Shown here piece after piece: positions 44,923 to 62,826 of a stretch of 64,000 bases of DNA. The translations under genes were made by a program, and so were the position numbers. Numbering within the stretch: the first letter of the stretch is position 1; every line of letters starts with the position of its first letter. The stretch is from an uncultured Candidatus Binatia bacterium (GTDB lineage Bacteria; Desulfobacterota; Binatia; Bin18): NCBI GenBank assembly GCA_965220195.1, contig CBDCPK010000002.1, positions 42,435 to 106,434 on the forward strand, in the 5' to 3' direction. The notes below the pieces were generated by a model. That model saw only the letters and a list, made by a program, of their open reading frames with translations. It did no database searches and was not told where the DNA came from.

Positions 44923-44946
44923 CGATGTTGGAGGAGGGAGAGCCCC

Positions 44947-45114: not shown

Positions 45115-45205
45115 GAGCACACCGCATGGATGGAGGCGGGAGAGCCATGCCCTCTACCGTCATCGGCGTGTACGCAGACCATAGTGAGCCACCTGTGCGC
45201 CCGGT

Positions 45206-47038: not shown

Positions 47039-47356
47039 GTGGAATATGGGACCCGCACGCTTGAATTGGCTGACGGCAGAGTTCCCTTTGAAGAATGGCT
47101 GAACGGCCTTCGCAACCCGAGCACGAAGGCGCGCATCCTTGCCGCGGTCAGCAAGATGTCGGGCGGGAACTTCGGCGGCGCAAAGTCTCTTAAAGGAGTC
47201 CCGGCATTGTTTGAGTATCGCATCGACGTCGGTCCCGGGTACCGGATATATTACCGTGTCCGTGGTCGAACGGTCGTCTTACTGTGGGGCGGGACCAAGC
47301 GCACCCAAACGCGCGACATTGAACGAGCGCGCACTTTGGCACGGCTGCTGGACTAA
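47039..47356 (+). CDS. RelE/ParE-superfamily addiction module killer protein (HigB-like)
   Basis: ...ARILAAVSKMSGGNFGGAKSLKGV..LFEYRIDVGPGYRIYY......VVLLWGGTKRTQTRDIERA matches the killer-protein family pattern. GTG start. Confidence 0.85.
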   Translation: MEYGTRTLELADGRVPFEEWLNGLRNPSTKARILAAVSKMSGGNFGGAKSLKGVPALFEYRIDVGPGYRIYYRVRGRTVVLLWGGTKRTQTRDIERARTLARLLD

Positions 47357-47368
47357 GGAGGAGATAGA

Positions 47369-47668
47369 ATGGCAGGTGCAACGACGAGAGCATTTGATGT
47401 CGCCGCCCACCTCGGCAGCCCCGAGGAGATCGCCGCGTACTTGGACGCCGTTCTGGAAGAAGGAGATGACAAGCTCTTGCTGGTGGCGCTGCGCACTGTT
47501 GTCAAATCCAAGGGGTTTACCACGGTCGCCCAAGGAGCGGGGTTACGCCGCGAGACCTTGTACCAGTCCTTCTCGGCAGACGGGAATCCCCGGCTGTCCA
47601 CCTTGAGCGGGGTGCTCGGGCAGTTGGGCATGCGGCTCAGCGTGACCCCACAGGCGAAAAGCGCCTGA
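47369..47668 (+). CDS. addiction module antidote protein (HigA family)
   Basis: FDVAAHLGSPEEIAAYLDAVLEEGD...GFTTVAQGAGLRRETLYQSFS.DGNPRLSTL is the typical antidote HTH. Confidence 0.85.
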   Translation: MAGATTRAFDVAAHLGSPEEIAAYLDAVLEEGDDKLLLVALRTVVKSKGFTTVAQGAGLRRETLYQSFSADGNPRLSTLSGVLGQLGMRLSVTPQAKSA

Positions 47669-47758
47669 GCGGGTCCTGCTCCTTTTGGGGGTCTAGTGTG
47701 GGGGCTGGCCCACGGCACATAAACGCTGTTATGAGTCATAGGAAGCGGGGAGGGCAGG

Positions 47759-48751
47759 ATGGACACAGCGATAGCGAAAGCCGCCCCGGCCGGGGGGACA
47801 GTCCCGGCCCGGATTGCGGCCGGCGTGACGCCGGCGCTCTTTGCCGAGACGCGCCAGGGCGCACAGCGGTTTTGGGAGTTCTTTGGGGCCAATATCCGCA
47901 ATGCCAATACCCGGATGGCCTATGTCACGGCGGCCTACCGCTTCGCGGACTGGTGCGAGGGGCGGGCTCTCGCCTTGGGGCAGGTCGAGCCCCTGCATGT
48001 CGCCCGCTACATCGAGCAGCTCGGGCGGGCGTATGCGCCGGCCACGGTGAAGCAAAATCTGGCCGCCTTGCGCCAGCTCTTTGACTGGCTCGTCGTGGGC
48101 CAGGTCCTGCGCAGTAATCCGGCGGCCGCGGTGCGCGGGCCGAAACAGGTGGTGAAAACGGGGAAGACCCCCGTGTTGACGGCCGCCGAGACGCGCCGCT
48201 TGCTCGACAGTATCGACCCATCCACGTGCATAGGGTTGCGAGATCGCGCGCTGCTGAGCCTGATGGTGTACGGCTTTGCGCGGGTGAGCGCGGCGCTGGC
48301 GATGCGGGTGGCGGACTATTACACCCAGGGCAAGCGGTCCTACTTCCGGCTGCACGAGAAGGGCGGCAAGTATCTGGTCATTCCCGCGCATCATAGGGCG
48401 CAGGCCTGGACGGATGCATATATCGACCGGGCGGGGCTGGCGACCGACCCGAAAGGGCCGTTGTTTCCGTCGGCCGGCCGCCGGCGGGGGAGCGACCGCC
48501 TCACCAGGCGGGCGATGGACCGGACCGATGCGTTGAAGATGATTAAGCGGCGCGCGCAGCGGGCGGGCTTGCCGGCGGAGGTGTGCGCGCACAGCTTCCG
48601 GGGGACGGGCATTACCGAATATCTGCGGGCCGGGGGTACGCTGGAGACGGCGGCGCGGATTGCCGGGCATGAATCGACCCGCACGACGCAGCTCTACAAC
48701 CGCCTGCCGGACGAGGTCTCGCTGGATGAGATCGAGCGGATTCATATCTAG
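47759..48751 (+). CDS. tyrosine-type site-specific recombinase/integrase
   Basis: 330 aa. SAM-like N-domain, catalytic region with GLRDRALL, HSFRGTGIT and HESTRTTQLY. Full-length relative of the fragments at 17985 and 19548. Confidence 0.9.
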   Translation: MDTAIAKAAPAGGTVPARIAAGVTPALFAETRQGAQRFWEFFGANIRNANTRMAYVTAAYRFADWCEGRALALGQVEPLHVARYIEQLGRAYAPATVKQNLAALRQLFDWLVVGQVLRSNPAAAVRGPKQVVKTGKTPVLTAAETRRLLDSIDPSTCIGLRDRALLSLMVYGFARVSAALAMRVADYYTQGKRSYFRLHEKGGKYLVIPAHHRAQAWTDAYIDRAGLATDPKGPLFPSAGRRRGSDRLTRRAMDRTDALKMIKRRAQRAGLPAEVCAHSFRGTGITEYLRAGGTLETAARIAGHESTRTTQLYNRLPDEVSLDEIERIHI

Positions 48752-48761
48752 GGCGGGGAGC

Positions 48762-48944
48762 GGGAAGGTGGCGGGCAAGGCCCCGCGCCCTTTTTTTTCT
48801 GCCTGCCTGGCTCTTGCCAGTCTAGCAAAAAGAATCCACAGTCAAGGGTACACTCCGCTGCGCTCCGCCGCTTCGCGGCCCTGGACTGCGGAGCCGCTTT
48901 TTTTGCTTTCCGGGTGAGCACATTTCGGCCGGAAGGAGGACCGT
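48762..48944 (+). promoter_or_regulatory. leader element copy L1 between int and S6
   Basis: Hairpin GTCAAGGG(48841-48)/CCCTGGAC(48879-86). Competing stem GCTCCGC(48862-68)/GCGGAGC(48888-94) followed by T7 (48898-904). Stem CTTTCCGG(48906-13)/CCGGAAGG(48929-36) covers the SD. Confidence 0.55.
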
Positions 48945-49199
48945 ATGGAAACTGAAATCATCGCTATGTGGGCGCAGGTCTTCGCAACGCTCGTCGTGGG
49001 CTTGGTGCAATGCGGCCTCATTGCCTGGGGCTTGCGGCGCATGGGCATAGCTTCGGCCGAGCGCAACCGGCAACTGGACGCGATGGAGGCCACCCAACGC
49101 GAGCAGAGCCGTACGCAGGCGGAAGCGTTGGGCAAAATTGGGCAGGCCCTTGACCGGCAGGGCGAAGTCTTAGCCGAGCTGCTTCGGCGTACCGCCTAG
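48945..49199 (+). CDS. small single-pass membrane coiled-coil protein, family member S6
   Basis: 84 aa. MWAQVFATLVVGLVQCGLIAWGLRRMG, then ERNRQLD and the tail ALDRQGEVLAELLRRTA. Confidence 0.7.
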   Translation: METEIIAMWAQVFATLVVGLVQCGLIAWGLRRMGIASAERNRQLDAMEATQREQSRTQAEALGKIGQALDRQGEVLAELLRRTA

Positions 49200-49798
49200 C
49201 CCCTATCCCCAGCCGGGCGGGGTCGAGCCCGGCACAACCGTTTCCTGATAGCCCCGCGCGTAACCGAGCGGGGCGTTTAGCAAGGTCGGCGGAGCCGATT
49301 CTTTTACCCTCCAAACCTCCCTTGAGGGAGCGTTCAAGGGAGTCACTCTTTACCGATCTCCCCGGATTGCCCTGGCTACGACGCCAGCGCCCCCGGCTCA
49401 GTGGGACGAACCCACAGAGCCACCCAAGCCAGGAGCAGCGCCGGGAACCCCCCCCAGGACATGCCGCGCGGGTGGGCGGCTGGTGCCCAGGTCCGGCGGC
49501 CATCACGCCTGCCCCCGCCACCCCCGGCTTCGTGTCCAAAGCGACACCAAGCCACCCCCACGGGATACGTCCGCCCCCGCCCCCACCCACCAATGGACGG
49601 CGCGTCTCTCTCCGCTGGCGTGAGGTTGGACCCGCCAACCGCGTCAGGCAGAGCCTGTTACGGCTGCGAAATCAGGCGTCCGCCCGGACGAAGACCACGC
49701 CTCCCTGGCAACCCGCGCCAGGCAGAGCCTGTCACGCGTTGCACTGTCGGTCGGCCCGCAGACCGCCGCCGGCGCACGCGCCGTTCGGATGATTCCGA

Positions 49799-49839
49799 TT
49801 TTTTCCCGACTCCAGAGATGGGTGAGAGTCGGGAAAAAA
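49799..49839 (+). repeat. AT-stem hairpin H2, copy 1 (upstream of ssb)
   Basis: ttttttcccgact / ccagagatGGGTGAG / agtcgggaaaaaa. Confidence 0.75.
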
Positions 49840-49952
49840 TCTTGTGTTTTTGCTAGGGAAAGGAGGTGCAAGACAGCAGAAGTATTATCGAATCCTGGTC
49901 TTTGGTTTTGTCTCATCAACGGGCGTAAGCCCCCCAACAGAGGAGGTACGAC

Positions 49953-50336
49953 ATGGCAGCGCTGAATAAAGCGATGATTCTCGGGAATGTGGGCAACGAG
50001 CCGGAGGTCCGCCAGACACAGAGCGGACGGGCGGTGGCCAACTTTTCGGTAGCAACGACGGACGCGTGGGGTGAGGGAGAAGACCGCCAGGAGCGGACCG
50101 AATGGCATCAGGTGGTGGTGTGGGGGAAGCTGGCCGAGACCTGCGGACAGTATCTCACCAAGGGCCGCCAGGTCATGGTGGAAGGCCGGCTCCAGACGCG
50201 GAGCTATGAGGATCGAGACGGCAACAAACGGTCCGTGACCGAGATTATTGCCCAGCAGGTGCAGTTTCTCGGGGGGCGGAAGGAGAACGGTGCGGACGCC
50301 GGCGCCGGTACCCCGGCTGCCGATCTGGACTCCTAG
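49953..50336 (+). CDS. ssb: single-stranded DNA-binding protein
   Basis: LNKAMILGNVGNEPEVRQTQSGRAVANFSVAT...TEWHQVVVWGKLAE is the canonical OB fold. The short tail ends AADLDS, not the usual acidic DDDIPF-type tip. Confidence 0.95.
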   Translation: MAALNKAMILGNVGNEPEVRQTQSGRAVANFSVATTDAWGEGEDRQERTEWHQVVVWGKLAETCGQYLTKGRQVMVEGRLQTRSYEDRDGNKRSVTEIIAQQVQFLGGRKENGADAGAGTPAADLDS

Positions 50337-50418
50337 GACCAATAGGCAGGGCGCTGGCCCTGCCACCCCAGGCAGCGGCCAGGCCCACGACCTGGCCGCA
50401 TCGTCAAAGGAGGACGGT

Positions 50419-50781
50419 ATGAGCAACGTTGATCTCAAAGCTTTGGAAACCAGATGCCTACGGCGGGTGCAGGAGCAGGCGGCGCAGATCGAGATGAAGA
50501 CTCTTGAGGAACGGTGCGGGGCGATCTATGCCATCGCGCGCGACTGCGTCCCCGAGGAGGACGCCGAGCTGGTCTGGATTTTCGCCAATAACCTCATCGA
50601 ACTGGACACGACCGATTATGACGCACGGGAGGCCATGGAGGAGGACGACGGGATTCACCTGTCCCGCGGCATCCGCTACGCGCTCACCATGTACCTGTTC
50701 CACATCGCGGATGGCTGGATGACAAGCAGCCGTAGCGATAAATCTACCCTGGGCAGCCAGGCCCGCGCTTGGTCGCCCTGA
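50419..50781 (+). CDS. hypothetical protein
   Basis: 120 aa with RBS aaaggagga, directly downstream of ssb. Confidence 0.5.
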   Translation: MSNVDLKALETRCLRRVQEQAAQIEMKTLEERCGAIYAIARDCVPEEDAELVWIFANNLIELDTTDYDAREAMEEDDGIHLSRGIRYALTMYLFHIADGWMTSSRSDKSTLGSQARAWSP

Positions 50782-51007
50782 GCGAGCGCCCCACCACCCC
50801 GCCAGTGGGGCGCGTTGCCAGGGTCGGTAGCTCTTACTACTGCATCCCGCCGGCCCCACCCTCCCAGACCGAGAAACCAGGCCAAAACCGCCGGTTTTGG
50901 CCTTCACCCGCAAAAACCGACCTCTATACGGGGCCGTAGCGGCCCGTAATCGGCGCGGTCCATACTAAGGCCCTCACCAAAGAATAGGCACTTGCAGGCC
51001 TGCCTGA

Positions 51008-51265
51008 TGTCGTTTTTGCGAAATCGGCCGCAACCTGAACCAACTCAGCCGGACTGCCAACCAAGGCGGGGTGGTCAACGGGGCCGACGTGCGGCGGGTG
51101 ATTAACGCGGGCCTCGTGCAGATGGAGGCCGTCAAAGGGCGGTATGACCAGGCGCTCGAAACGATAGTCAAGCGCGCCGTGGTGCCGTTATCCCAAGAGG
51201 CAGGACTGACCCGGCGCGGGCCGGCTGGCCCGCGTGAGATCCCCGCGCCGAAAAAATCAGCCTGA
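51008..51265 (+). pseudogene. mobC: MobC-like relaxosome accessory protein, N-terminally truncated
   Basis: EIGRNLNQLSRTANQGG is the hallmark MobC motif. The open frame begins just after a TGA, has no start codon, and lacks the N-terminal half. Confidence 0.6.
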
Positions 51266-51584
51266 ATCCGAGACCAGGATGCGGTACGCCTATCAGCAAG
51301 ACAGTCTCGCCGGCTTAGAGGACGCCCGGCAGACCCTCTACCATGCCGGGGTGAAGGCATACCGGGCGGCGGAGCGGGAGGAAGGGGCGGAACGGGAGCG
51401 CTGAGGGACGGCGGCCAGAAGCTGACAGGGACCACCCGCTGTCAGTACGCCATCGGGCCGCAGGCGGGCAGGAAGATACCCTTCCGTGGTTCTTATCCCT
51501 CTGAGTTTCCTGGGTTGCAATTGAGAAGCTCTCGTAGGGGGATTGCTTATCGCTTCCTTTGACGTTACCTGATGCTTGACATCT

Positions 51585-51602
51585 TGTCTCAAATTTGAGA
51601 CA
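51585..51602. promoter_or_regulatory. perfect 18-bp palindrome TGTCTCAAATTTGAGACA next to TTGACA (51576-81), 10 nt upstream of the toxin ATG
   Basis: Read directly from the sequence. Likely the TA operator. Confidence 0.5.
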
Positions 51603-51611
51603 GTTCCAGCC

Positions 51612-51953
51612 ATGAAAGACGTGCGGTTCGTGGGCTCCTCTCTCGACGACCTGCGCGCCTTTCCAAAAGCCCCCAAACAGGACCTGGGCCGTCAGATCGA
51701 GCGGGTCCAGCGCGGACTCGACCCGCTGGACTGGAAGCCGATGACGCAGGTGGGCCGCGGGGTCCGTGAGATTCGGATTCGCGACAAGGACAACAATTAC
51801 CGTGGCATCTATGTGACAAACATCGGCGAGGCCGTCTACGTGCTGCATGTGTTTAGGAAACAATCGCAGAAGACGCCGGCGCGGGATATCGAGAAGGCGA
51901 AGTCCCGGCTGAAGGCGCTTCGAGCACAGTTACGCAAAGGAGAGCGTCCATGA
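51612..51953 (+). CDS. RelE/HigB-like toxin (phage Gp49-like family)
   Basis: VRFVGSSLDDLRAFP...REIRIRDKDNNYRGIYVTNIGEAVYVLHVFRKQSQKTPARDIEKA. Overlaps the downstream HTH gene by 4 nt. Confidence 0.8.
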   Translation: MKDVRFVGSSLDDLRAFPKAPKQDLGRQIERVQRGLDPLDWKPMTQVGRGVREIRIRDKDNNYRGIYVTNIGEAVYVLHVFRKQSQKTPARDIEKAKSRLKALRAQLRKGERP

Positions 51954-52309
51954 AGATTCGCAGCTACCGGAGCGTCTGGGATGCTATCGCGGACAGTCCT
52001 GAAGAGGCGGCTCACCTCAAGCTCCGCGCTCAGCTCATGGATGCCATCAAGGCATACCTCGATGACGAGGGCATTACGCAGGCGGAAGCGGCCCAAAGAC
52101 TTGGCATCCCCCGTTCTCGCGTGAGCGAGCTGGTCAACGACCGGATCAGTAAATTCACCATCGACAAGCTGGTGGATATGGCGGCACGGGTCGGGCTGCA
52201 CACGGAGATAACCGTCAGGGGAGAGCAGCATCGTTCCGTATCGGCGGCCAGGGCGGTCTGGCCTGAGCCCGTCGGCGATACGGATGATCCATCCCTTCTT
52301 GACCGTTAG
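51950..52309 (+). CDS. XRE-family HTH antitoxin (HigA-like)
   Basis: ITQAEAAQRLGIPRSRVSELVNDRISKFTIDKLVDMAARVG is the typical HTH_XRE. Confidence 0.85.
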   Translation: MKIRSYRSVWDAIADSPEEAAHLKLRAQLMDAIKAYLDDEGITQAEAAQRLGIPRSRVSELVNDRISKFTIDKLVDMAARVGLHTEITVRGEQHRSVSAARAVWPEPVGDTDDPSLLDR

Positions 52310-52408
52310 GCCCAGCGGGCGGCGGACGGTATTCGCGGGGACGATAGCGCAGCCGAGGAATAGAACTACGCCCTGCGTGAGCGGGGCAACCGAACAGGAG
52401 CAACGGCG

Positions 52409-52777
52409 ATGCTGTACGAGTTCCCAGGCTACCATCACTGCGACTCGAAATGTGACGTGGAAATCGTCCGCGGCACAGGGCTGACGACACTGGTCATCTG
52501 TACCGAGTTGGAGAACAACCCCGGCACCAGCGTGACAAATGCGGCCGAGATTATTGCGACGCGTCTCTGCCAGGAAGACCCGACCATCGACCCCGAGGGG
52601 CTGATATGGGTCGAGCACTACCCGGAGCGTTCGGCTGGCCGTGGGCAAAAGTCCTACCCCGAGACATGGGACATGGTCGTGTTCACCCACCGAGCCGGTC
52701 GGACCTTCCGTCGTCCGGCGTGGCGACGTGTCTCGGCCGAGGAAGTGCAGACCATCCGCCAGAAGATTACGAGTTGA
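52409..52777 (+). CDS. hypothetical protein
   Basis: 122-aa ORF of ordinary composition. No domain recognised. Confidence 0.5.
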   Translation: MLYEFPGYHHCDSKCDVEIVRGTGLTTLVICTELENNPGTSVTNAAEIIATRLCQEDPTIDPEGLIWVEHYPERSAGRGQKSYPETWDMVVFTHRAGRTFRRPAWRRVSAEEVQTIRQKITS

Positions 52778-52848
52778 CCCTCACAGCCCAGGAGCAGGCA
52801 AACCGACACAGAGACCGTACGGATTAGGAAAGGCAGGAAATCGTGGCT

Positions 52849-53025
52849 GAGCACAATATCGATCCGCTCGGCCTCACAGACCCAGCCGGAAATCACGCCG
52901 ACCCCACTCTGAAACGAACCCGGCGCCAGGTTCCCCAACGTGGCTTGGCCCCAGACGGGTGAGGCTGAGAAGGCCGACAGGACAAACAGGGCAGCCGCCA
53001 TGAACTTGGCGCTATGGCGGGGCAT
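52849..53025 (-). pseudogene. 5' remnant of a secreted GVISGWVCEA-domain protein
   Basis: Signal peptide MPRHSAKFMAAALFVLSAFSASPVWG plus LAPGSFQSGVGVISGWVCEAERIDIVL. Homology then stops abruptly. Confidence 0.6.
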
Positions 53026-53205
53026 TCTTCGAGCCCAGCCAGGGAGGGCCGCATGAATGGCTGTAAGGCGGGCGAATCCCAAGGGCAGGGATACCGCCCG
53101 CACCATGCCACGCCGCCGGCCCCCAGGCGGTGGTGGCCAGGGGCTTCCATGCTGTTTCGATGCCCATCCCCCCTCGTTCAAGGGTGTCCAGAGTGTCCTC
53201 CCGGC

Positions 53206-53310
53206 TTAGGGCAGGAAGAGCAGGACAAGGACCAGGGTGACGACCACAATGAGGAACGCGATGGCAATCGCGTCGGCCCCTTGGGGATATTCCTTGGGTG
53301 CGTCCTTCAT
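53206..53310 (-). CDS. possible 34-aa hydrophobic peptide
   Basis: MKDAPKEYPQGADAIAIAFLIVVVTLVLVLLFLP with GGAGGAC 7 nt upstream. Below the ORF-track cutoff, so only weak support. Confidence 0.3.
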   Translation of the reverse strand: MKDAPKEYPQGADAIAIAFLIVVVTLVLVLLFLP

Positions 53311-53655
53311 GCTGCGTAGTCCTCCGGGGACAGCGGCGCCCCCGACCCCCTCCGGCCTGCCTCCCTCCGTCTGCTTACTCCATAATGGCCCGCCTGTCCA
53401 CCTTCATTTGACTAGGGGGGAGGACATATCTCCGTGCCCTCCCAGCGGACGCGGGTCGGGCGGGTGCCGGACCATGCTCACATAGCCGCCCGCCCGGCAA
53501 AGCGCGCCAGAACCGCTCCGCGAACCTGGCACGTTTGCTGAGGGCCTCGGCTCCAGAAGGCCCCGCCTGCCGGCCGCATCTCGCGCCAGGAAACCTGTCA
53601 CGGATGCTAAGGCCGTTGGCGGACTCAGCAGTGCGCCCTCCGGGCTTCTCTCTGA

Positions 53656-53694
53656 TTTTTTTCGGTCCGAGCGGTTGGTGAGAACCGAAAAAAA
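53656..53694 (+). repeat. AT-stem hairpin H2, copy 2 (upstream of ardC)
   Basis: tttttttcggt / ccgagcggttGGTGAGa / accgaaaaaaa. Confidence 0.75.
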
Positions 53695-53730
53695 TCATCC
53701 TTTGTTTTTAAGGGGAGAAGGAGGCGAAAA

Positions 53731-54627
53731 ATGAGCCAGGACGTGTACGCGAAAATCACCGCCCGTATCGTATCAGCCCTCAGAGAAGGGGTAGTGCCGT
53801 GGCATCAACCGTGGAACGCCGCCCAGGGCCGTCCACGTAATCTTATCAGCGGCAAGCCGTATCGGGGCATCAATATCTGGCTGCTGTCGGGACAAGGAGG
53901 CTCCCCATTTTGGTTGACCTACCGGCAAGCCGTGCAGATCGGCGGGCACGTCAAAAAAGGGGCGAAAGGCCAGACCGTCATTTTCTGGAAATTCCTGGCC
54001 CGGAAGGGCGGTGAGCAGGACGGCCGAGAGGACGGCGAGCAGGACCACAAAAAGCAGGCCGGCTACGCCATGGCGCGCGCGTATACCGTGTTCAATGCCA
54101 CGCAGTGTGTATTGCCGGAGGCATGGGCGGAGAAAGCCCAGGTGGGAGGGCCTGAGATAGCCCCGGCTCAAACAATCGCCGCGTGCGAACAGATTGTGGC
54201 GGAGATGCCGGGGCGACCGCACATCACGCACGGCGGGAATGCTGCCTTTTACCAGCAGGGGATTGACCAGGTGACGATGCCGGAGCCGGGCAGCTTCGAG
54301 GCCCCGGAGCTGTACTATTCGATCCTTTTTCACGAGCTGACCCACTCGACCGGCCATGCGGGGCGGTTGAATCGGGCGACGCTGGTGGACGCGCTCCGCT
54401 TCGGGGATACCAACTACAGCAAAGAGGAGTTGGTAGCCGAGATGGGGGCGGCGTTTCTGTGTGGGGTAGCGGGCATTGAAAACCGCACGGCAGACACCAG
54501 CGCCGGCTACATCCACGGGTGGCTGAAGAAGTTGAGCAATGACACGCGGCTGCTTGTGCAGGCCGCTGCCCAGGCCCAGCGGGCCGCGGATTATATTCTC
54601 GGTCTGGAGAGTCAGGCCGGGGAATAG
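53731..54627 (+). CDS. ardC: ArdC-like antirestriction protein (N-terminal ssDNA-binding domain plus zincin metalloprotease domain)
   Basis: ITARIVSALREGVVPWHQPW...GKPYRGINIWLL (DUF1738-type) and the HEXXH motif LFHELTHSTGH. Confidence 0.9.
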   Translation: MSQDVYAKITARIVSALREGVVPWHQPWNAAQGRPRNLISGKPYRGINIWLLSGQGGSPFWLTYRQAVQIGGHVKKGAKGQTVIFWKFLARKGGEQDGREDGEQDHKKQAGYAMARAYTVFNATQCVLPEAWAEKAQVGGPEIAPAQTIAACEQIVAEMPGRPHITHGGNAAFYQQGIDQVTMPEPGSFEAPELYYSILFHELTHSTGHAGRLNRATLVDALRFGDTNYSKEELVAEMGAAFLCGVAGIENRTADTSAGYIHGWLKKLSNDTRLLVQAAAQAQRAADYILGLESQAGE

Positions 54628-54720
54628 CCGCCTGTAGGCGGGCGGCGCAGCCGGGTCCGAAGAAACCGCCCCGCACCACCACCCCATGAACCGGGCGCAG
54701 CAGCCCAGAAGGAGCATCCT

Positions 54721-54969
54721 ATGAGCGTCTTAGCCATTGCCCCCGAGACCCTGAAACGCATGGCGGCAGCCATTCCTGTGGCAACCTACACGTGCCAGGC
54801 GTGCGCCCTCGCCGAAGACACCGACCTGTGCTTGGACCCCAGAGGGGAAGTGTGGGTGTGTGAAGGGTGCTATAGCGAAGCGGCCGAGCTGCACGGCTAC
54901 CAGGGCGCGCCGATCTCTATCAGCGACCTGCCCCGGCTCCTCGCTGAGCAGCCGGCCCCCGTCCGCTAA
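54721..54969 (+). CDS. hypothetical zinc-ribbon protein
   Basis: 82 aa with CQAC...CEGC. RBS agaaggagc. Confidence 0.5.
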   Translation: MSVLAIAPETLKRMAAAIPVATYTCQACALAEDTDLCLDPRGEVWVCEGCYSEAAELHGYQGAPISISDLPRLLAEQPAPVR

Positions 54970-55662
54970 GCCCGTCCCGCCCGGCTGGGGATTCCGCTCA
55001 GGCGAGATCCCCAGCCGGGTCCCACCCTTCAATCCGAGCGGCCCCCCCAGCGCGCGCCGTGGCCCTGGTTGCCGGGCGTAGCGCCCGCTGTTTTTGTCCC
55101 GCCCCCCCTGGGCGCGCGCTTCACCCCCCCGAGAGACACCCGGACTCACGCTGCTTGACCACCCTTCCGGCCCCCGTGCGCCGTGGACGAACCACCGCGC
55201 CCCCCCAGGACCCAAGGCGTCGGGCTGTTTGCGCACGGCGGAGCCGGGAACCCTCGGCCGGGGCGCTCGTCCCGGCGCGGGGACCCTGAGCGCGTCGGGA
55301 ACCCTCGTGCGCCCCGGCTCGTCCCGTTCCGCCATCAGCAGTGGCCCGACCACTCTTTACCAGGAGACCCCCCAGAACCTGCCGCGGGGGCGCGTGTCGG
55401 CCTGCCCAGGTCCGCAGGCCGTCATCACGCCCACGCAGCCCCCGGCTTCGTGTCCAAAGCGCCACCAAGCCACCCCCACGGGACAGGTCCGCCCCCGGCC
55501 CCACCCATCAATGGGCGGCGCGTCTCTCTCCGCTGGCGTGAGGTTGGACCCGCAAACCGCGCCAGAACGCGGCCCAGGGCGGCCACAACCTGTCACGGTT
55601 TCCGGTTTTCCACGCGCCTCCGTGATCGAAGGAAAGGGGGCCTCTCGGCAGGCTTTTGCCTC

Positions 55663-55706
55663 TTTTTTTTCAAACGGGAACGGGGGGTGAGCCGTTTGAA
55701 AAAAAA
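55663..55706 (+). repeat. AT-stem hairpin H2, copy 3
   Basis: ttttttttcaaacgg / gaacgGGGGGTGAG / ccgtttgaaaaaaaa. Confidence 0.75.
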
Positions 55707-55785
55707 GTGTTCTTGCGACTGGAATTGACCAGGCCATCCCGTAGCCGCCCCCGCGGTGAATAGCCGAAGCGAGAGGAGTGCCACT

Positions 55786-56118
55786 ATGCAGGTCAAACTG
55801 ACCACTGAGGGACCGGGCGAAATCTCGGTGTATGCCCCAGACATCGCGCAGACCGTCCGGTGTGTCATCCAGCGCGTTGATGCCCGCCACTGGCGGCTGT
55901 CCGCCCAGGACTGGAAAGCGCGGGCCTGGCACCATCAAGCCCTGATCGACATTTTCCCTGCCCAGGGGATGGCCCTCGTCCATGCCGGCGCCTTCTTGGA
56001 TCACCTCCGCCTGGCGACCCAAACCCAGCCCGTGCCCCCGGCCTGTTCCGTGTGTGGCTGGCGCGGCCCGCAGACCGCCGCCGGCACGTGCTACCAGTGC
56101 GCGGACCCGGATGCGTAG
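55786..56118 (+). CDS. hypothetical protein with C-terminal CxxC...CxxC
   Basis: 110 aa from the ATG after gagaggag. Ends CSVCGW...CYQCADPDA. Confidence 0.5.
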   Translation: MQVKLTTEGPGEISVYAPDIAQTVRCVIQRVDARHWRLSAQDWKARAWHHQALIDIFPAQGMALVHAGAFLDHLRLATQTQPVPPACSVCGWRGPQTAAGTCYQCADPDA

Positions 56119-56335
56119 CGCTGGGACGCCGCCCGCCCCGCCTGAGTAAAGGCGGGCCGCCCGGCCCCCGCTGGGTCCCACTTTGCTGGCGTGTCATCGA
56201 GTATCTCCGACACAGATTCCTGAGACGGGTAAATAGAACAGCTTGACGCGGTTTCCGCCCCCAGCCTGACCCGTCTGTCCGGTGTGTCAGCAAACGCACG
56301 TTTTCCAAGACCGGGCCAGCCACCTTGCCCGCGAG

Positions 56336-57004
56336 TCATTCATGGAAGAGGGCCGCGCCGGTGTCCTCGAAGTCTCGCTCAAGCACACCACAGGCTGCGC
56401 GACCACCTCCTGCACATCCCGCTTCCTCGCCGTCAGGGCAATAGGAGTCTGGATTCGTATGAATGATGAGTGCGGCCCCGTCTTCATCGAATATGGACAG
56501 TGGCCCGGCCGATAGCGAGATACGGGTCGTGAGCGTTATCAACGTGCCGCCGCCAAGCGGCTCGCCGTCTCGGTTGAAATCGAATCCCGATATATCGTCG
56601 ATATTGATATTGGGTAATTCTCCTGCGTGGTATGGGTGATTGCCATCCGGAGTCGTATTGCCATGACCCCCTGGATCGAAGTGGCCGCCGGCGGCACTAC
56701 ACGGTTCGCAGGCTCCGGTTTCGTGAATGTGCACGCCATGTTTGCCCTCTGTTAAACCGCGCCGCACTTGGATCACCACGACAACAATCTTGACCAGTTC
56801 ATCTGACGGGCGCTCCCGCAGGATCGCCTGTCCAATCCGCTTCAGTGAACCACACGTCCGCAAAGTAGCTTTCGCGGTTTGCTCGTCGATCACGGGAGTT
56901 TCCTCTTCCTCATCGACTTGAGCACTCGCCTGAAAACCCAAAAGACACACGAGCGTCATTGCCAAGATGCCACTCGCTCGCCGTATAGATTGAAGATATT
57001 CCAT
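56336..57004 (-). CDS. sodC: periplasmic Cu/Zn superoxide dismutase family protein
   Basis: Signal peptide, then GKHGVHIHETGAC, GGHFDP, HAGELPNI and ALIIHTNPD. Lower GC, on the opposite strand to its neighbours. Confidence 0.8.
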   Translation of the reverse strand: MEYLQSIRRASGILAMTLVCLLGFQASAQVDEEEETPVIDEQTAKATLRTCGSLKRIGQAILRERPSDELVKIVVVVIQVRRGLTEGKHGVHIHETGACEPCSAAGGHFDPGGHGNTTPDGNHPYHAGELPNINIDDISGFDFNRDGEPLGGGTLITLTTRISLSAGPLSIFDEDGAALIIHTNPDSYCPDGEEAGCAGGGRAACGVLERDFEDTGAALFHE

Positions 57005-57579
57005 GATTCTCCCCACGCCCGTTCCTAGATAAGTATCATCGCGGCGAACTATACCGGGCGGAGTGGAAGTGCACCAGCATCGAGAAGAAGACCCGAGCCG
57101 TCGCCCGGCGCTGGCCCATGGCTCAGGCGCTGCTCCAACCCGGTCGCCAATCGAACGTCATGGACATCTTCCTGCTCGCTCTTCAGCGCGCCTCTTGCCC
57201 GCTCTATGACACCAGCCTGTCTTGCCAGGAGTGTCCCTACTTCAGGCTGCCACACGGCGGGCGGCCGCGCCCACCGTTACAAAAATCGGCGTCCGGCACG
57301 GGAGCCGGACCGGCGACCAGGCCCGGCTCCCGCCGTCCCAACTCGCCGGTAGGCAAGGCTTAGCCAGGCCGCCCACTGCACGCGAGGCCGTCCCGGCAAA
57401 GCCGGAAGGCGGCCACCTGCGCACCCGCGCCAGGCACAGCCTGGCACGGCGGCGAACCCAGGCGTCCGCTCAGACGAAGACACAGCCTCCCTGGCAACCC
57501 GCGCCAGGCAGAGCCTGTCACGCGTTGCGCTGTCAGTCGGCTGCCATATGCGAGAGGCGCTTGCGCGCCATCCTCTCGA

Positions 57580-57618
57580 TTTTTCCCGGTCCGAGTGGGG
57601 GGTGAGAACCGGGAAAAA
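57580..57618 (+). repeat. AT-stem hairpin H2, copy 4 (upstream of HNH)
   Basis: tttttcccggt / ccgagtGGGGGGTGAGa / accgggaaaaa. Confidence 0.75.
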
Positions 57619-57655
57619 TCTTCTTTCTTTTTTCTGCTGAGAGGAGCGCGGGGCG

Positions 57656-58057
57656 ATGGCAAAACGGACACAGGGAATGAATTGGATCAGACGCGAAAAG
57701 CGGCTTGCCATCTACCTGCGGGACGGTCTGGCCTGTGTGTATTGCGGGGAGAGTGTCGAGACAGCCGCTCCGCTGACCCTGGACCATCTGCGACCCTACA
57801 GCAAGGGCGGGACGAACACGGCGACGAACTTGGTCACCGCGTGCCACCGGTGCAACAGCAGCCGGGGCAGTCGGACGGTCCGGGGCTTCTGCCGGGCAGT
57901 TTCAGCCTATCTGAATCATCACATTGGGGCGCAGGAGATCGAGCGGCATGTGCGGCGGTGCGCGTCCCGGAGGATTGATGTCCAGGCCGCGCGGACGCTG
58001 ATTGCGCGCCGGGGGAGTTGGGCGCAATGCCTCAAAAAGCAGGAGGGGCTGACGTGA
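57656..58057 (+). CDS. HNH endonuclease
   Basis: CVYCG...LTLDHLRPYSKGGTNTATNLVTACHRCNSSRG. Confidence 0.9.
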   Translation: MAKRTQGMNWIRREKRLAIYLRDGLACVYCGESVETAAPLTLDHLRPYSKGGTNTATNLVTACHRCNSSRGSRTVRGFCRAVSAYLNHHIGAQEIERHVRRCASRRIDVQAARTLIARRGSWAQCLKKQEGLT

Positions 58058-58194
58058 AGCAACTCAGCTTTTTTGACACGACCAGGGACGAGCTGGCCGA
58101 GATTCGCCGCTACGCCGAGCTGGAACAGCGGCTCGGCTTCACCCTGAGCATGAGCAGGAAGACCCTGCCGGAGATTACCGGCGTGGCGGTCTAG
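58054..58194 (+). CDS. possible 46-aa coupled ORF
   Basis: The GTG overlaps the HNH stop (GTGA). AGGAGGGG lies 5 nt upstream. Below the track cutoff. Confidence 0.35.
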   Translation: MKQLSFFDTTRDELAEIRRYAELEQRLGFTLSMSRKTLPEITGVAV

Positions 58195-58215
58195 CCACAG
58201 GGAGGAAGAGGCAAC

Positions 58216-58437
58216 ATGACGTGTGCAGATTGTGGAGCGCCGACCGAGATCATCAGCCGCCGCATTGGCTTCTTTGGCAAGGTGGATACTTACAGCCGCT
58301 ATTGTCGGCCCTGCCTCCCCTCTCACGCCAGCGAGGGCGGCTATACGCCCGAGGAGGCGCTGGCCATCTATGACGCATGTGTTGACGCGGTGAAGCGTGC
58401 CCAGGCCGCCCGTGCGCAGAAAGGGAAAGCCTCATAG
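58216..58437 (+). CDS. hypothetical zinc-ribbon protein
   Basis: 73 aa with CADCG...CRPC. RBS ggaggaagagg. Confidence 0.5.
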   Translation: MTCADCGAPTEIISRRIGFFGKVDTYSRYCRPCLPSHASEGGYTPEEALAIYDACVDAVKRAQAARAQKGKAS

Positions 58438-58633
58438 CCCGGCAACGGAAGCAAGACGGGCCGCGCTCCGCGTTGCGACTGCGAGGGAGTTTGATATGGA
58501 CCTGAGCAATGGGCATCTGAAAGCGATAGCCCCACGGGTGTGCGAGATATTGCGGGAGGAGGAGGGGGACTAGGCTCTCCCGCTGGTTGAGCGGCGGTCT
58601 GGTGGTGATGACGGAGCCACCAGACCGCCGGCA

Positions 58634-58762
58634 TTAGGACCCTTTGGCAGGAGCGTTGCCACGCCCGCCGCCCGACGGATTGCCCGTGGTTGAGGGCCAG
58701 TTCCCGCCCTTACTACTCCCCTTACCGCCCCCGCCGCCTTTGCCTCCACCTGATTTTCCCAT
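58634..58762 (-). CDS. possible 42-aa glycine/lysine-rich peptide
   Basis: MGKSGGGKGGGGGKGSSKGGNWPSTTGNPSGGGRGNAPAKGS, preceded by agaggagaaaaaacg. KGG-repeat-like. Weak support. Confidence 0.35.
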   Translation of the reverse strand: MGKSGGGKGGGGGKGSSKGGNWPSTTGNPSGGGRGNAPAKGS

Positions 58763-59760
58763 CGTTTTTTCTCCTCTCTTGGGAAATTTTGAGAGGAGGC
58801 ATACCCGGAAACGCCGGGTGCTGTCAACGGGACGCTGACCGTCACCATCAGGAGCCGTGTCGGGTCCCGCTTTCCGGCTCTTTGACGAGGGCCGCAAGCG
58901 GATTTTTCGCCGGTCATGGAAAATCCCCGGAACGGCCGTTTCCGCGTCACCCCGCCCGCAAGACAGCAGACCCCCCCCCGTGCCCCGCCGTGACCCTCAA
59001 GGCGGGCTTCCGCTTCTTTCTCATGCTCCCCCCGCCCCGGCGGGGCGCTCCCCCTCGTTCCGCCTGGACGCACCAGGCCGAACGACCCCCCAGGAGGAAC
59101 AAGGCGGGTCGGGCTGTTTTCCGCCTCACGCCCGGCCCTCGTCCCAGCCGGGCAGGAGCCCGCGCCCGGCTGGGAACCCTCGTGGGCCTAAGCGCTCGGC
59201 AGAAGCGGCCCTCCATGAACTCTTCACCTTCAAACCCCCATCCCCAATCTTTGGGGCGCAACCCCCTCACTCCCCCACGCTTTGGGGGAGGTTCGGCCCC
59301 CCTTCCTACTTGTCCTTCCCCCCTGGCGCGGGGGGAAGGACTGAACCGCAGCGCCCCCCAGGACGTGCCGCGGGGGTGGGGTGTCGGCCTGCCCAGGTCC
59401 GCAGGCCGTCACCCCGCCCCCGCCGCCCCCGGCTTCGTGTCCCAGGCGACACCAAGCCACCCCCACCATTCTGGCCAAGCCCCCCAAGACATGCCGCGCG
59501 GGCCAGCACGCTGGTGCCCAGGTCCGCGGCCATCACGCCCGCCCGCGCCGCCCGCCGCTCCGTGTACAGGGCCACACCGAGCCACCCCGAGCAGGAGGCC
59601 CCCGGAAGCCGGACCCGTCTCACCGCAGGGTAAACCGACTCAACCCACCGGCTTCCCCGGCAAAGCGCGCCAGAACCGCGCCGCGAACCTGGCACGTTTG
59701 CACAATGAGCGAGGCGTCAGGGGAAAGATACTGCCCGCCTTCGGCGAGGCGGTTTCTCGC

Positions 59761-59806
59761 TTTTTCTTTTCCAGGAGACAGGGGGGTGAGTCCTGAAAAA
59801 GAAAAA
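59761..59806 (+). repeat. AT-stem hairpin H2, copy 5
   Basis: tttttcttttccagga / gacaGGGGGGTGAG / tcctgaaaaagaaaaa. Confidence 0.75.
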
Positions 59807-59862
59807 ATGTCGGGTTTTATAGGGAAGGTGCAACGCAATCACGCAGAAGGAGGGAGAGCCCA

Positions 59863-60030
59863 ATGAGACCGCAGCCAGACACGAACATCCAGGGTGGGGA
59901 CCGAATGCGGCAAATGGAGCTGTCAGCGCAGACCCAGGACGCTGAACAGCAACGCAAATGGCTGCTGGAGAAGCGCAAGCCGGCCAAGGTGCGGCGGAAG
60001 CGCGAGCCGGAAAGCCTGAAACTCTTCTAG
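59863..60030 (+). CDS. small basic hypothetical protein (55 aa)
   Basis: RBS ggagggagag. Coding is supported by a protein-level-conserved pseudogene paralog at 44947. Confidence 0.5.
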   Translation: MRPQPDTNIQGGDRMRQMELSAQTQDAEQQRKWLLEKRKPAKVRRKREPESLKLF

Positions 60031-60062
60031 GCACACACCGCACAGAGGGAGGAGGGAGAGAT

Positions 60063-60389
60063 ATGGATAAGACAAATATTCGGGCGAAGATTGAAGCCCT
60101 AGAAGAGCTGGAAGCGCTGGACATGGAGCGGATCATCAGCCGCGCAGGGGAAGAGGTCGCAGAGTTGGCCGGCCTCGACCGCGAGTATGCCGGGGACAGA
60201 GCGCTGGCCGTCAATCAGATCCGGGTGCTCCTGGAGGCCGCCTACGACGAGGGGCGCTTGCATGAGGTCGCCAACGCGGAGGCCGACCGGAAAACCCTCA
60301 TCATGACCCGCCTGGAGGAGCTGGGCACCATGGACCAGACCCCCGCGGTCTGCGCCGAAGAAGCAGCCCTTGTGGCCGAACTGCGCTAG
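60063..60389 (+). CDS. hypothetical acidic coiled-coil protein
   Basis: 108 aa. RBS gagggaggaggg. Confidence 0.5.
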   Translation: MDKTNIRAKIEALEELEALDMERIISRAGEEVAELAGLDREYAGDRALAVNQIRVLLEAAYDEGRLHEVANAEADRKTLIMTRLEELGTMDQTPAVCAEEAALVAELR

Positions 60390-60464
60390 TGCCGACATCG
60401 AGCCCCGCGCGCCGGGGTTCGGGTGTGGGCATTGGCCCACCACCACACAGGAGGAGGGAGAGAC

Positions 60465-60665
60465 ATGACCTATACCGTCATCGGCGTGTACGAAGACAAT
60501 TTACAGGGGGGGTGTTTCCATGTGGAGGCGAATAACTCCTCGGAGGCCGTGGCGGCGGTGGAGCGCCGCGACACACCAGAGACCGCCCACATCGCCTCTG
60601 ACTTCATCGTCCTGGTGACCCTGCCTGGTGCGCAGTTCAACGAGTACAGCGCGCCCGATGAATGA
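60465..60665 (+). CDS. hypothetical protein (66 aa)
   Basis: RBS gaggagggagag. The N-terminus MTYTVIGVYED is echoed by the remnant MPSTVIGVYAD at 45147. Confidence 0.5.
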   Translation: MTYTVIGVYEDNLQGGCFHVEANNSSEAVAAVERRDTPETAHIASDFIVLVTLPGAQFNEYSAPDE

Positions 60666-61755: not shown

Positions 61756-62826
61756 TCATTCTTCCATATCGAGAGGATATTGAAGCGGCGTTGATTCCGA
61801 CCAGCCCCTGCTAGGCGCATTCCGATGCATTCGGGTTATGCCGTTTGTCTGGACCACTTTTGCCCCACGGTGAATGAGTGCTCGGACCACGGCTTTTCTT
61901 GGATGATCCTCGTCGTTTCGATTTGCTGAAATAATCGCCGTATACGTCGGCGAGCTAGTCTCCTGATCCAGTTTTGGTCCCAACCATTTGTCGAGCACCT
62001 CCGAGGAGAGGTTCCTTCTTGATCCGTGATGAGGGACCTCAAATCGGTTAATGCCGGGGAGCGTTATTCCCAATGCAAGCGCATAATCATAAGCTTCAGC
62101 TAGCGCCTCGACCCCTGCATCCCCCGTGAGCAGAATTTTCTCACCACATAATTCGGCGAACTGCACGACGCTTGTTTCGTTCTCGCAACTTGTCCCTTCG
62201 GACTCCCCTTTCAGGTTTTCCTCCCCCCAAGCCGCAGCAACCTTTCTTATCCAGGCTATCGCTCGCTCAAAAATCCTTCCTTCTATGGCGGCTTGGCGCT
62301 CTGCTTCGGGTGTCTTCTCCGAATTGACGATGAGATCAATATACCTCGCAAAGCTTGGCGCGAGGACGGTGAAACTCTCAATCTGAGTGCCTTGGAATAC
62401 CTGTCGGATTTCAATATCCTGCTCTTCGGCAATCTCTTCCAATTCTGCAGTGTGAGGGAAGTCTTTCTTTAGACGACGAATGAGTCCGTTTTCTGTGTAA
62501 TTGTACTCGAAGCGTGGCAGCAGATCCCAGACGTGTTCCCACGGCCGGTTCATCCACAGAATGCCAATCCCAAATTCCTCTAAGACTTTTTTTAGTCCTG
62601 CCGCATGATCACCGTCTGGATGTGTCAGAACAACATGGTCGATGTAGTTAGGGTTGTCGTAATAACTGCGAATGTGTTCAACGAGCTTCTCACCATCGTC
62701 TGTGTAGCCGCCATCGACCACATGAATGTAGTCACAATCGTTATCCTCACGATAACGCAGTGCAATTGCGTCGCCGCTGCTTTTCTCGCCGGCTTCTAGA
62801 AAATCAATCTCGAAGAATTTTGTCAT
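61756..62826 (-). CDS. MBL-fold metallo-hydrolase
   Basis: VVLTHPDGDHAAGL (HxHxDH-type motif), ...LLTGDAG..., FEVPHHGSRRN. Low GC. Confidence 0.8.
   Translation of the reverse strand: MTKFFEIDFLEAGEKSSGDAIALRYREDNDCDYIHVVDGGYTDDGEKLVEHIRSYYDNPNYIDHVVLTHPDGDHAAGLKKVLEEFGIGILWMNRPWEHVWDLLPRFEYNYTENGLIRRLKKDFPHTAELEEIAEEQDIEIRQVFQGTQIESFTVLAPSFARYIDLIVNSEKTPEAERQAAIEGRIFERAIAWIRKVAAAWGEENLKGESEGTSCENETSVVQFAELCGEKILLTGDAGVEALAEAYDYALALGITLPGINRFEVPHHGSRRNLSSEVLDKWLGPKLDQETSSPTYTAIISANRNDEDHPRKAVVRALIHRGAKVVQTNGITRMHRNAPSRGWSESTPLQYPLDMEE

Follow-up and report, generated by a model that had tools for sequence, protein, structure and literature searches.

Reiterated structured leaders in a probable conjugative leading-region remnant of Candidatus Binatia

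Early expression of anti-defence genes and of SSB, the protein that binds single-stranded DNA, decides the survival of a conjugative element in a new host. To our knowledge, the Frpo/ssi hairpin promoter, so far demonstrated in plasmids of enterobacteria alone, is the one mechanism understood for such expression, and 'establishment gene regulatory sequence type 1' (EGeRS1) is the only other system described; the Frpo-type single-stranded DNA (ssDNA) promoter work of Masai and Arai in 1997 was reportedly done on the F plasmid. Here we analyse 64,000 nucleotides of contig CBDCPK010000002.1 from an uncultured Candidatus Binatia bacterium (the window; ~62% GC overall), in which ssb, ardC and other genes stand in an array of cassettes headed by long, structured, repeated leaders. 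We propose, with a probability of about 0.4, that these leaders are single-strand start signals of a new build, which would act in RNA synthesis on the incoming strand.

The Frpo/ssi examples are single long imperfect hairpins that rebuild TTGACA and TATAAT boxes (PMC11541004, PMC12672017, PMC13478746), and in F and IncI plasmids the transferred strand (T-strand) serves as template for the ssb and anti-restriction genes of the leading region, which are driven by ssDNA promoters (PMC11541004, PMC12672017). EGeRS1 was described in the pLS20-family and pBS72 plasmids of Bacillus as regions of 400–750 bp with multiple inverted repeats, with 4–6 copies in a plasmid, every one of them heading an establishment operon, ardC being among the genes so headed (PMC8708921). 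It has no sigma-A promoter, as reporter assays showed for EGeRS1-B, it blocks read-through in an orientation-dependent manner, and it has a modular 5' part and an internal duplication; sister plasmids in the pLS20 family use an ordinary promoter plus a repressor (EGeRS2) (PMC8708921). On the mechanism of EGeRS1, we found no later paper mentioning the element in the literature searched.

Judged from its published description, EGeRS1 is the closest published analogue of the Binatia leaders. Both are rich in inverted repeats and similar in length (300–750 nt in Binatia vs 400–750 bp); both are reiterated (4–6 times in EGeRS1 plasmids, 5–6 times in the window, from 3 to at least 6 times in its relatives), precede establishment operons including ardC without a recognisable housekeeping-sigma promoter (in Binatia, in silico), and are modular, with a 5' part that is present or absent and with internal duplication. 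The pLS20 sister plasmids with promoter and repressor are likewise mirrored by distant Binataceae ardC loci. The host phylum differs, Binatia being a GC-rich diderm lineage. With the Frpo/ssi/ssp elements of F, ColIb-P9 and pESBL, the Binatia leaders share their place as reiterated structured leading-region spacers before ssb and anti-restriction genes, an orientation with the T-strand as template, an expected lack of activity when double-stranded and a possible second role in priming; they differ in consisting of several short hairpins (8–17 bp) without −35/−10 boxes, and S1, the leader of ssb, has no similarity among 72,556 PLSDB plasmids, a set expected to hold F-like and IncI plasmids. We class the Binatia leaders as a known kind, namely structured, reiterated establishment-gene leaders in leading regions, in a new lineage and with a new sequence; they add a third example, unrelated in sequence to the known ones (for EGeRS1, by description), from an uncultured GC-rich lineage.

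Five long spacers of the window (S1–S5) share mosaic similarity of 64–98% in a BLAST-level comparison within the window, are all oriented as the genes, and head ssb, ardC, open reading frame (ORF) 55786, the HNH gene and ORF 59863, respectively. A full leader is 300–750 nt long, heads a cassette of one to three genes and reads, from 5' to 3', module A, box hairpins, GC hairpin, AT hairpin, T-rich or pyrimidine tract, Shine–Dalgarno sequence (SD) and start codon. Module A is C-rich, distal and about 115–270 nt long, and occurs once in S1 and S3 and twice in S5, while S2 and S4 have none. Box hairpins, one or two per window spacer and up to three in relatives, stand at ~70-nt spacing and consist of CGCGCCAG(G), a loop of 4–23 nt and (C)CTGKCAC(G); this core sequence is strongly conserved across 34 copies, and its mismatches are C.A and C.U on the RNA strand, that is, G.T and A.G on the opposite strand. 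The GC hairpin is small (4–5 bp). The AT hairpin, always some 20–130 nt ahead of the start codon with the pyrimidine tract and SD behind it, has a stem lengthened by a 5' T-run and a 3' A-run and a loop that always ends in GGTGAG; the hexamer is invariant through at least seven stem versions, each of which goes with its own gene (ardC, ssb, HNH) across elements. The leaders of the window, with the T-run/GGTGAG/A-run element given as AT hairpin, are as follows:

44873–44922, + strand: sixth AT hairpin (T-run/stem/GGTGAG/stem/A-run), with its own stem version CCTGAAGGGC/GCCCTTCAGG
49200–49952, + strand: spacer S1, before ssb; module A 49379–49650, box hairpins ~49640–49661 (degenerate) and 49714–49735, GC hairpin about 49771–49782, AT hairpin 49799–49839, T-rich tract next
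53320–53730, + strand: spacer S2, before ardC; box hairpins 53503–53532 and 53582–53601, GC hairpin about 53633–53645, AT hairpin 53653–53697, T-rich tract, then SD
54970–55785, + strand: spacer S3, before ORF 55786–56118; module A 55345–55565, box hairpin with 23-nt loop 55558–55596, AT hairpin 55664–55705
57364–57655, + strand: spacer S4, before the HNH gene; box hairpins 57426–57447 and 57500–57521, GC-rich hairpin, AT hairpin 57579–57619
59250–59862, + strand: spacer S5, before ORF 59863; module A twice, 59353–59468 and 59479–59593, box hairpin 59666–59695, AT hairpin 59763–59804

The mosaic make-up is visible in single units: the S4 box hairpins form a 74-nt tandem unit common to S1, and the S5 repeat at 59656–59701, which holds the box hairpin, is 98% identical to 53493–53538 in S2. 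Among relatives (designated by L numbers), the proximal part of S2 is conserved upstream of ardC in seven, and the unit of S3 and ORF 55786 recurs in L086, L101 and L103. The motif CCTGKCACG occurs 8 times in the window vs 1.7 expected, 7 of the 8 lying within spacers on the + strand, and the pattern T-run...GGTGAG...A-run has 6 matches (5 distinct sites) vs 0.14 expected, all on the + strand. With these counts far above chance, an earlier reading of the same DNA made from its sequence alone (the sequence-only reading) was right that structured spacers are reiterated in a single orientation before ssb, ardC and other genes. When 185,579 species were scanned, each represented by one genome, matches outside these arrays were only at chance level, and no Rfam family in the window reached its gathering score, the three matches up to an E-value of 5 being at chance level.

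Two coding explanations of leader parts were tried and rejected. Module A as a minus-strand coding remnant failed a codon-position GC filter, and single-base indels distinguish its copies. A leader peptide with the GTG of GGTGAG as its start is not coding, the frame relative to the downstream start being distributed about 7:6:4 over the three frames.

The hairpins are supported by covariation. In an alignment of 26 distinct AT-hairpin copies from the window and relatives, the sixth copy included, 85.6% of cells are paired vs 71.4% in column shuffles, and none of 500 shuffles reached the observed value; changes on both sides are found in 11/15 pairs, and all slid controls score lower. The AT and GC hairpins together are 89.3% paired vs 76.8%, with 12/18 pairs compensatory, and the outer stems of the box hairpins vary yet stay complementary (GCATC/GATGC, GCAAC/GTTGC, GCAAA/TTTGC, GCGTGCCC/GGGCACGC). 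The spacers also fold better than dinucleotide shuffles on both strands (z −2.8 to −5.4); these DNA folds are several short local hairpins of 8–17 bp with no dominant long stem on either strand, and the consensus fold of four S3-type spacers likewise consists of several short hairpins. Given the covarying stems and folds more stable than those of shuffled sequence, the leaders probably work as folded single strands rather than as double-strand operators.

A sigma-70 −35/−10 pair with ≥9/12 matches was found in silico in no spacer, on either strand, and a relaxed scan (≥7/12) gave only weak matches that are not conserved between copies. The proposal of the sequence-only reading that the spacers act as ssDNA promoters thus stands only in part: position, orientation and the lack of a normal promoter agree with it, whereas the Frpo anatomy, a long stem-loop with −35 and −10 boxes, was not found, and no such boxes are rebuilt in stems of the + or − strand. 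Having no long stem-loop, no rebuilt −35/−10, no PLSDB match (for S1) and no Rfam match, the leaders were not accepted as members of the Frpo/ssi family. The ardC genes of distant Binataceae have textbook promoters (TTGACA-N17-TATAxx, or TTGACA-N16-18-TAxxxx in the wider form) overlapped by palindromes, e.g. AGACTAACCGTTAGTCT, at about 9880–9990 in L012, L013, L015, L016 and L017; these loci are a 'promoter plus repressor' alternative to the hairpin leaders. Inspected by eye, the CTGGCACG..TTGC and GAAC motifs were dismissed as sigma-54 or extracytoplasmic function (ECF) elements, the spacing being 3–4 nt too short and AAC not conserved.

The setting of the leaders is best seen in relatives. 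The nearest ArdC loci (up to 91% identity) are nearly all labelled as Candidatus Binatia metagenome-assembled genomes, and the proximal module is conserved upstream of those ardC genes and also stands before ssb, HNH and other genes there, with HNH homologues behind the same module in L006, L033 and L074. In five relatives (L002/L030, L006, L086, L103 and L110), a module-led array, an origin of transfer (oriT), a nikA-like gene and a relaxase gene follow one another in one direction. The 42-kb contig CBDCTF010000003.1, which holds loci L002 and L030, represents an intact conjugative element, whose array comprises, on one strand, a small membrane-protein gene, ssb, ardC, a homologue of ORF 52409 and two more module-led genes; an AT-rich region with iterons and an inverted repeat comes next, then a NikA-like gene and a MobA/VirD2 relaxase, and the other strand encodes a coupling protein, VirB11, B10, B9, B8, B6 and B5. 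The related metagenome contigs MKWU01000405.1 and MKWU01002123.1 hold the same cassettes in other orders. The leading-region organisation put forward by the sequence-only reading is therefore borne out: in relatives, module-led cassettes flank oriT on the side away from nikA and the relaxase gene, as predicted, and run into oriT, and L002/L030 carries the spacers together with a type IV secretion system (T4SS) and coupling protein. The content of the array (ssb, an anti-restriction gene, toxin–antitoxin (TA) genes and many small ORFs, by Pfam) is also that of a leading region, and we consider it very probable that the window holds the remnant of one.

Just upstream of nikA, on the strand opposite the array genes, lies a conserved nick-like core, RTATCYTG/CC (slash, nick), which was counted on that strand in six elements (L002, L006, L086, L110, L004 and L103) and stands immediately 3' of an inverted repeat on the nick strand or only a few bases from it:

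L002: ATATCTTG/CC
L006: GTATCCTG/CC
L086: GTATCTTG/CC
L110 and L004: GTATCCTG/CC
L103: TTATCCTG/CC
Candidate nick-site sequence of the L002 relaxase/NikA-like protein: ATATCTTGCC

RP4 TraI and Ti VirD2 cut 5'-YATCCTG/Y (Ti border: ATATCCTG/CCA); the recipient receives the strand 3' of the nick first and the relaxase gene last. We take the core of the relatives to be a nick core of this RP4 TraI/Ti VirD2 type. The likeness to RP4 (IncP) and Ti oriT regions of the MOBP class extends to the position of the core behind an inverted repeat (3' of it, at most by a few bases), and to an accessory gene of the ribbon–helix–helix type (NikA/TraJ-type) followed by the relaxase gene, both transcribed away from oriT; it holds for the relatives, the window having lost the origin and kept gene relics. 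As the core is on the opposite strand, the array would enter first, with the cassette nearest oriT leading, and, by the polarity of the RP4/Ti consensus, the transferred strand would be the template of the array genes.

Beside oriT, L002 has further repeats: two tandem units of ~120 nt made of GC-rich hairpins (14780–15060) and four GGAAAGTTTT iterons (15765–15805), which may be replication or partition sites. Neither the 1188-aa protein of this locus nor its oriT-adjacent 250-aa protein matched any solved structure; the 250-aa protein has no Pfam match and the 1188-aa protein only a weak, sub-cut-off match to a pPIWI-associating nuclease.

Within the window, the stretch of 44.7–60.7 kb is well supported as a patchwork of leading-region fragments from MOBP-type (RP4/Ti-like) elements of Candidatus Binatia, integrated and decayed. 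At least three fragments, all oriented alike, make up the chain: the first runs from int through S1-ssb-ORF to the truncated nikA and relaxase genes, the second holds TA genes and ORF 52409 with a nick relic after them, and the third extends from S2-ardC to ORF 60423. Its genes and relics are as follows:

47039–47356, + strand: Gp49-like toxin of TA pair 1 (Pfam, weak match)
47369–47668, + strand: HI1420-type antidote of TA pair 1 (Pfam)
47759–48751, + strand: tyrosine recombinase, XerC/D-like, not integron-type (Pfam/NCBIfam)
48945–49199, + strand: small membrane/coiled-coil protein, no family match, repeated in the window and relatives
49953–50336, + strand: SSB (Pfam; 98% identity to the L004 SSB)
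50416 (probable start) to 50781, + strand: conserved ORF downstream of ssb (82% identity in L004)
51023–51211, + strand: truncated nikA/MobC-like gene, C-terminal half
51279–51404, + strand: relaxase relic of 41 codons, fusing 17 N-terminal with about 19 C-terminal residues of the MobA/VirD2-type relaxase found in relatives
51576–51953, + strand: Gp49/HigB-like toxin of TA pair 2 (Pfam)
51950–52309, + strand: HTH_37 antitoxin of TA pair 2 (Pfam)
52409–52777, + strand: conserved 122-aa ORF, no family match
52832–52841, − strand: degenerate nick core reading ATTTCCTGCC (RTATCYTGCC with one mismatch), homologous to that of L110
53731–54627, + strand: ArdC (Pfam: ArdcN and MPTase-PolyVal domains)
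54721–54969, + strand: small zinc-ribbon-like ORF with Cys-x2-Cys (from its translation; no family match)
55786–56118, + strand: ORF headed by spacer S3
56336–57016, − strand: Cu/Zn superoxide dismutase, a cargo gene inside the array (Pfam)
57656–58057, + strand: HNH endonuclease (Pfam)
After HNH to 58437, + strand: two small ORFs, that at 58216–58437 zinc-ribbon-like with Cys-x2-Cys (from translation)
59863–60030, about 60060–60389 and about 60465–60665, + strand: three small, partly acidic ORFs, no family match

Pfam and NCBIfam upheld the earlier calls of ssb, ardC, HNH, two TA pairs and integrase, and the proposed mobC remnant is real, since 51023–51211 matches the C-terminal half of the relatives' NikA/MobC-like protein at 66–68% identity. 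Three other statements of the sequence-only reading need amending. A relaxase gene, said to be missing, has left the relic at 51279–51404. 'Integrase-headed' is inexact, as a TA pair precedes the integrase gene and the array starts further left, at the sixth hairpin. 'Nearly all on one strand' fits the + strand array genes, with the superoxide dismutase gene as the exception. The right end of the array is formed by the three small ORFs at 59863–60665, of which those at about 60060–60389 and 60465–60665 are acidic by their translations.

The relaxase relic is in frame, its first 17 residues being 82% identical to the L002 relaxase and joined to residues near position 504–522, which points to a clean internal deletion of about 1.45 kb. 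Homologues of ORF 52409 lie after ardC in L002, L004 and L006, and in L110 the homologue is followed by oriT; the homology of the window to L110 stops inside the nick core at 52832–52841. The window has no exact nick core, one-mismatch matches being at chance level, and no T4SS; an inverted repeat at 50879–50903 was rejected as oriT, having no adjoining nick core. A similar junction may be present in contig CBDEWE010000002.1, where an intact core with its inverted repeat (L004 20799–20808, L033 7563–7572) is followed by no nikA or relaxase gene, and another module and an HNH gene lie about 4.7 kb beyond. Leading-region fragments joined at or inside the nick core may reflect relaxase-mediated recombination at oriT.

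That the array extends left of 47039 follows from the sixth hairpin, which heads a pseudogene paralogue of ORF 59863 (44947–45114, with a premature TAG). Here, 44932–45182 duplicates the last cassette, being 88% identical to 59848–60065 plus 60450–60500; the duplicate comprises ORF 59863 and the start of ORF 60423 without the middle ORF, and is cut off by an opposite-strand Na+/H+ exchanger/TrkA-N gene (45206–46843).

The occurrence of the same cassettes in other orders in relatives shows that they behave as autonomous units, and the repeated leaders are the likely substrates of the rearrangements; such repeats permit the shuffling of leading-region cassettes, and remnants without promoters are their characteristic trace in chromosomes. 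With the order shuffled and a cargo gene on the other strand separating cassettes, no cassette can do without an expression signal of its own. We keep the functional logic of an ssDNA start because the cassettes need their own signals yet lack an ordinary promoter, and because the geometry permits transcription of the incoming strand. In an intact element, the array would be the first DNA into the recipient, with the transferred strand as template, and the leaders would act in that strand: their hairpins would persist on SSB-coated DNA as entry-specific start signals for RNA synthesis, giving mRNA and possibly also complementary-strand primers, and each cassette would be expressed or converted once its own leader had entered. 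In the double-stranded state, the leaders would have no promoter and the genes would fall silent, and the gene-proximal part (AT hairpin, U-rich tract and SD) would double as the 5' end of the transcript. Tentatively, then, the Frpo/ssi principle would be kept in function with a different build, one of several short hairpins, conserved loop and mismatch features and no −35/−10. A more specific form, in which entry-triggered signals without sigma-factor boxes place a polymerase or primase by short protein-recognised hairpins and RNA starts at GGTGAG, we regard as doubtful. If that form held, then, taken together with EGeRS1 of Firmicutes, structure-based control of establishment genes without promoter boxes would be widespread and would have arisen, or been kept, far beyond Enterobacteria. 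The parts of the leaders are unusually well defined: the hairpins, three in number, covary, the hexamer is invariant, the mismatched core is conserved, and the geometry permits incoming-strand transcription.

Several observations weigh against start signals on the incoming strand. The hallmark of the ssDNA promoters known so far, a single long hairpin rebuilding −35/−10, is absent. GGUGAG on the mRNA, complementary to the 16S 3' end and followed by a U-rich tract and SD, has the look of an RNA-level leader. Covariation fits T-strand DNA and mRNA equally, and two measures of the folding strand are not informative either, minimum free energies favouring the − strand in only 15/25 copies and wobble counts being 8 vs 11; the GC hairpin has several G-U pairs on the + strand. 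The assignment of the nicked strand follows from the RP4/Ti consensus, and no RNA polymerase or primase partner was identified. Finally, an ssDNA promoter has been excluded for EGeRS1 of pLS20, partly because the transferred strand of pLS20 is the non-template strand (PMC8708921), whereas the Binatia nick core puts the template strand first.

The most serious rival, possible but somewhat unlikely in our view as a full account, is that the leaders act at the RNA level only, as 5' untranslated or intercistronic elements transcribed from double-stranded DNA, from an upstream or a non-canonical promoter. The AT hairpin would then lend stability to the mRNA end, ribosomes would be recruited by the GGUGAG loop and U-rich tract, and the hairpins further upstream would serve as insulators, as terminators of read-through or as binding sites of an RNA-binding regulator. 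GGUGA is complementary to UCACC of the 16S rRNA 3' end, and both this complementarity and the fixed place of the AT hairpin about 20–130 nt before the start codon, ahead of the pyrimidine tract and SD, speak for such a role, as do the + strand G-U pairs tolerated by the GC hairpin, a terminator-like + strand hairpin ending at a T-run in 3/5 window leaders (S1, S3 and S5) and the block to read-through that EGeRS1 of pLS20 exerts in its native orientation only (PMC8708921). However, no promoter is detectable in or between the cassettes, though these are shuffled and split by an opposite-strand gene. Some copies have a terminator, but as a general intrinsic terminator, a GC-rich hairpin before the T-run, the structure is not better than in shuffles over 25 copies (−10.5 vs −11.1 kcal/mol), and sequestration of the SD by the pyrimidine stretch upstream of the hairpin is likewise not general (mean z −0.24; strong in S4 and one relative), features of these kinds being seen in individual copies (S3, S4 and S5); the box core, moreover, carries its C.A and C.U mismatches on the RNA strand, with G.T and A.G on the other. 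An RNA-level role of the proximal leader part is accordingly a serious rival to the start-signal reading, or a function complementary to it.

Far less probable is that the spacers are operators of a global repressor, such as ArdK or KorA of R388 or Reg of p576, which would give transient expression after entry. The box core is strongly conserved in its 34 copies, ardC and ssb are so controlled in p576 (PMC8708921) and in R388, and the distant Binataceae ardC loci do have palindrome-overlapped promoters. The likeness to R388 (ArdK, StbA, KorA) and p576 Reg lies in ardC and ssb belonging to a gene set with common repeated upstream sequences; the operators there are short, double-stranded and overlap normal promoters, whereas the Binatia elements are covarying hairpins with variable half-site spacing and no promoter. 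With half-sites 4–23 nt apart, flanking stems that covary rather than being conserved, no canonical promoter to repress and, TA antitoxins apart, no candidate regulator gene common to the arrays, the reiterated operators that the sequence-only reading had offered as its second hypothesis are disfavoured.

We consider it improbable, too, that the leaders are recombination sites, used as folded strands in the manner of attC or CTX attP by a tyrosine recombinase or relaxase to shuffle cassettes. This would fit the variable cassette order among relatives, the box hairpin with its conserved core, fixed mismatches and variable loop, as in attC, the integrase copies that accompany several arrays and the joining of arrays at the nick core in the window, which the contig of L004 and L033 may show likewise. 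Like integrons, the locus is a one-directional array of small cassettes with TA pairs and structured repeats of conserved core and fixed mismatches, with a tyrosine recombinase at one end. The recombinase is, however, XerC/D-like and not IntI (42.7 bits on the integron model TIGR02249 vs a cut-off of 265), and the repeats are much longer than attC, stand upstream of the genes and fused to the SD where attC sites are downstream, and are linked to oriT and relaxase rather than attI; we therefore rejected an integron. Furthermore, the examined parts of L002, L004 and L006 hold no homologue of the 47759–48751 integrase, and plain homologous recombination between repeats can explain the mosaic order.

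Least probable of all are selfish or neutral repeats of the repetitive extragenic palindrome (REP) or miniature inverted-repeat transposable element (MITE) kind without a role in expression, which would account for the mosaic, modular make-up and several copies per element but not for a strictly uniform orientation, a constrained position relative to the start codon, stem versions that travel with their own genes (ardC, ssb, HNH), chance-level matches outside arrays in the scan of 185,579 species, an invariant GGTGAG and compensatory stem changes.

The surroundings of the array hold further traces of mobile elements. Integrase-linked arrays are seen again in relatives L001, L003 and L100, and integrase and small-membrane-protein fragments recur across 9–21 kb of the window: two more paralogous tyrosine recombinases and the small membrane-protein gene have left fragments at 17974–18606, 18629–19643, 21337–21651 and 9173–9341 (recombinase fragments at 17974–18606 and 19545–19643), which are 76–91% identical to the copies at 47.8–49.2 kb. 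Related integrative elements appear to have left their remains throughout the window. It has no tRNA gene that could have served as an integration site. Right of the array, an IS630-family (DDE_3) transposase (62823–63898, − strand, apparently two overlapping ORFs) sits in a low-GC stretch (about 50% GC at 61–63 kb).

A second, different conserved intergenic module (48762–48956) heads each copy of the small membrane/coiled-coil protein gene, with further copies at 21243–21429, 20102–20184 and 11145–11301 (− strand). It has a terminator-like hairpin and T-run, and another hairpin that holds GGGTGAGC beside the SD; several such modules occur per element in relatives L002, L006, L025, L059 and L074.

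Elsewhere in the window, a Tad/Flp-type pilus cluster at 2–9073 encodes a secretin, a CpaF-type ATPase and two TadB/C-type proteins, with a weak response-regulator-like match that is possibly CpaE-type; a virB11-like match at 5.3 kb, tried as a sign of a conjugative T4SS, is the ATPase of this cluster, whose genes have no relation to conjugation. At 12429–12860, tandem 54-nt units run over 8 periods, 72–91% identical to the reference copy, with long ORFs overlapping on both strands. A 1465-aa leucine-rich-repeat protein is encoded at 23753–28150 by a gene with long arrays of 72-nt repeats and repeats of 450–470 nt. Lastly, four tandem paralogous units of ~420 nt at 36662–38259 (− strand), each ending in an apparent signal-peptide-encoding start, adjoin a TonB-dependent receptor gene (33834–36671).

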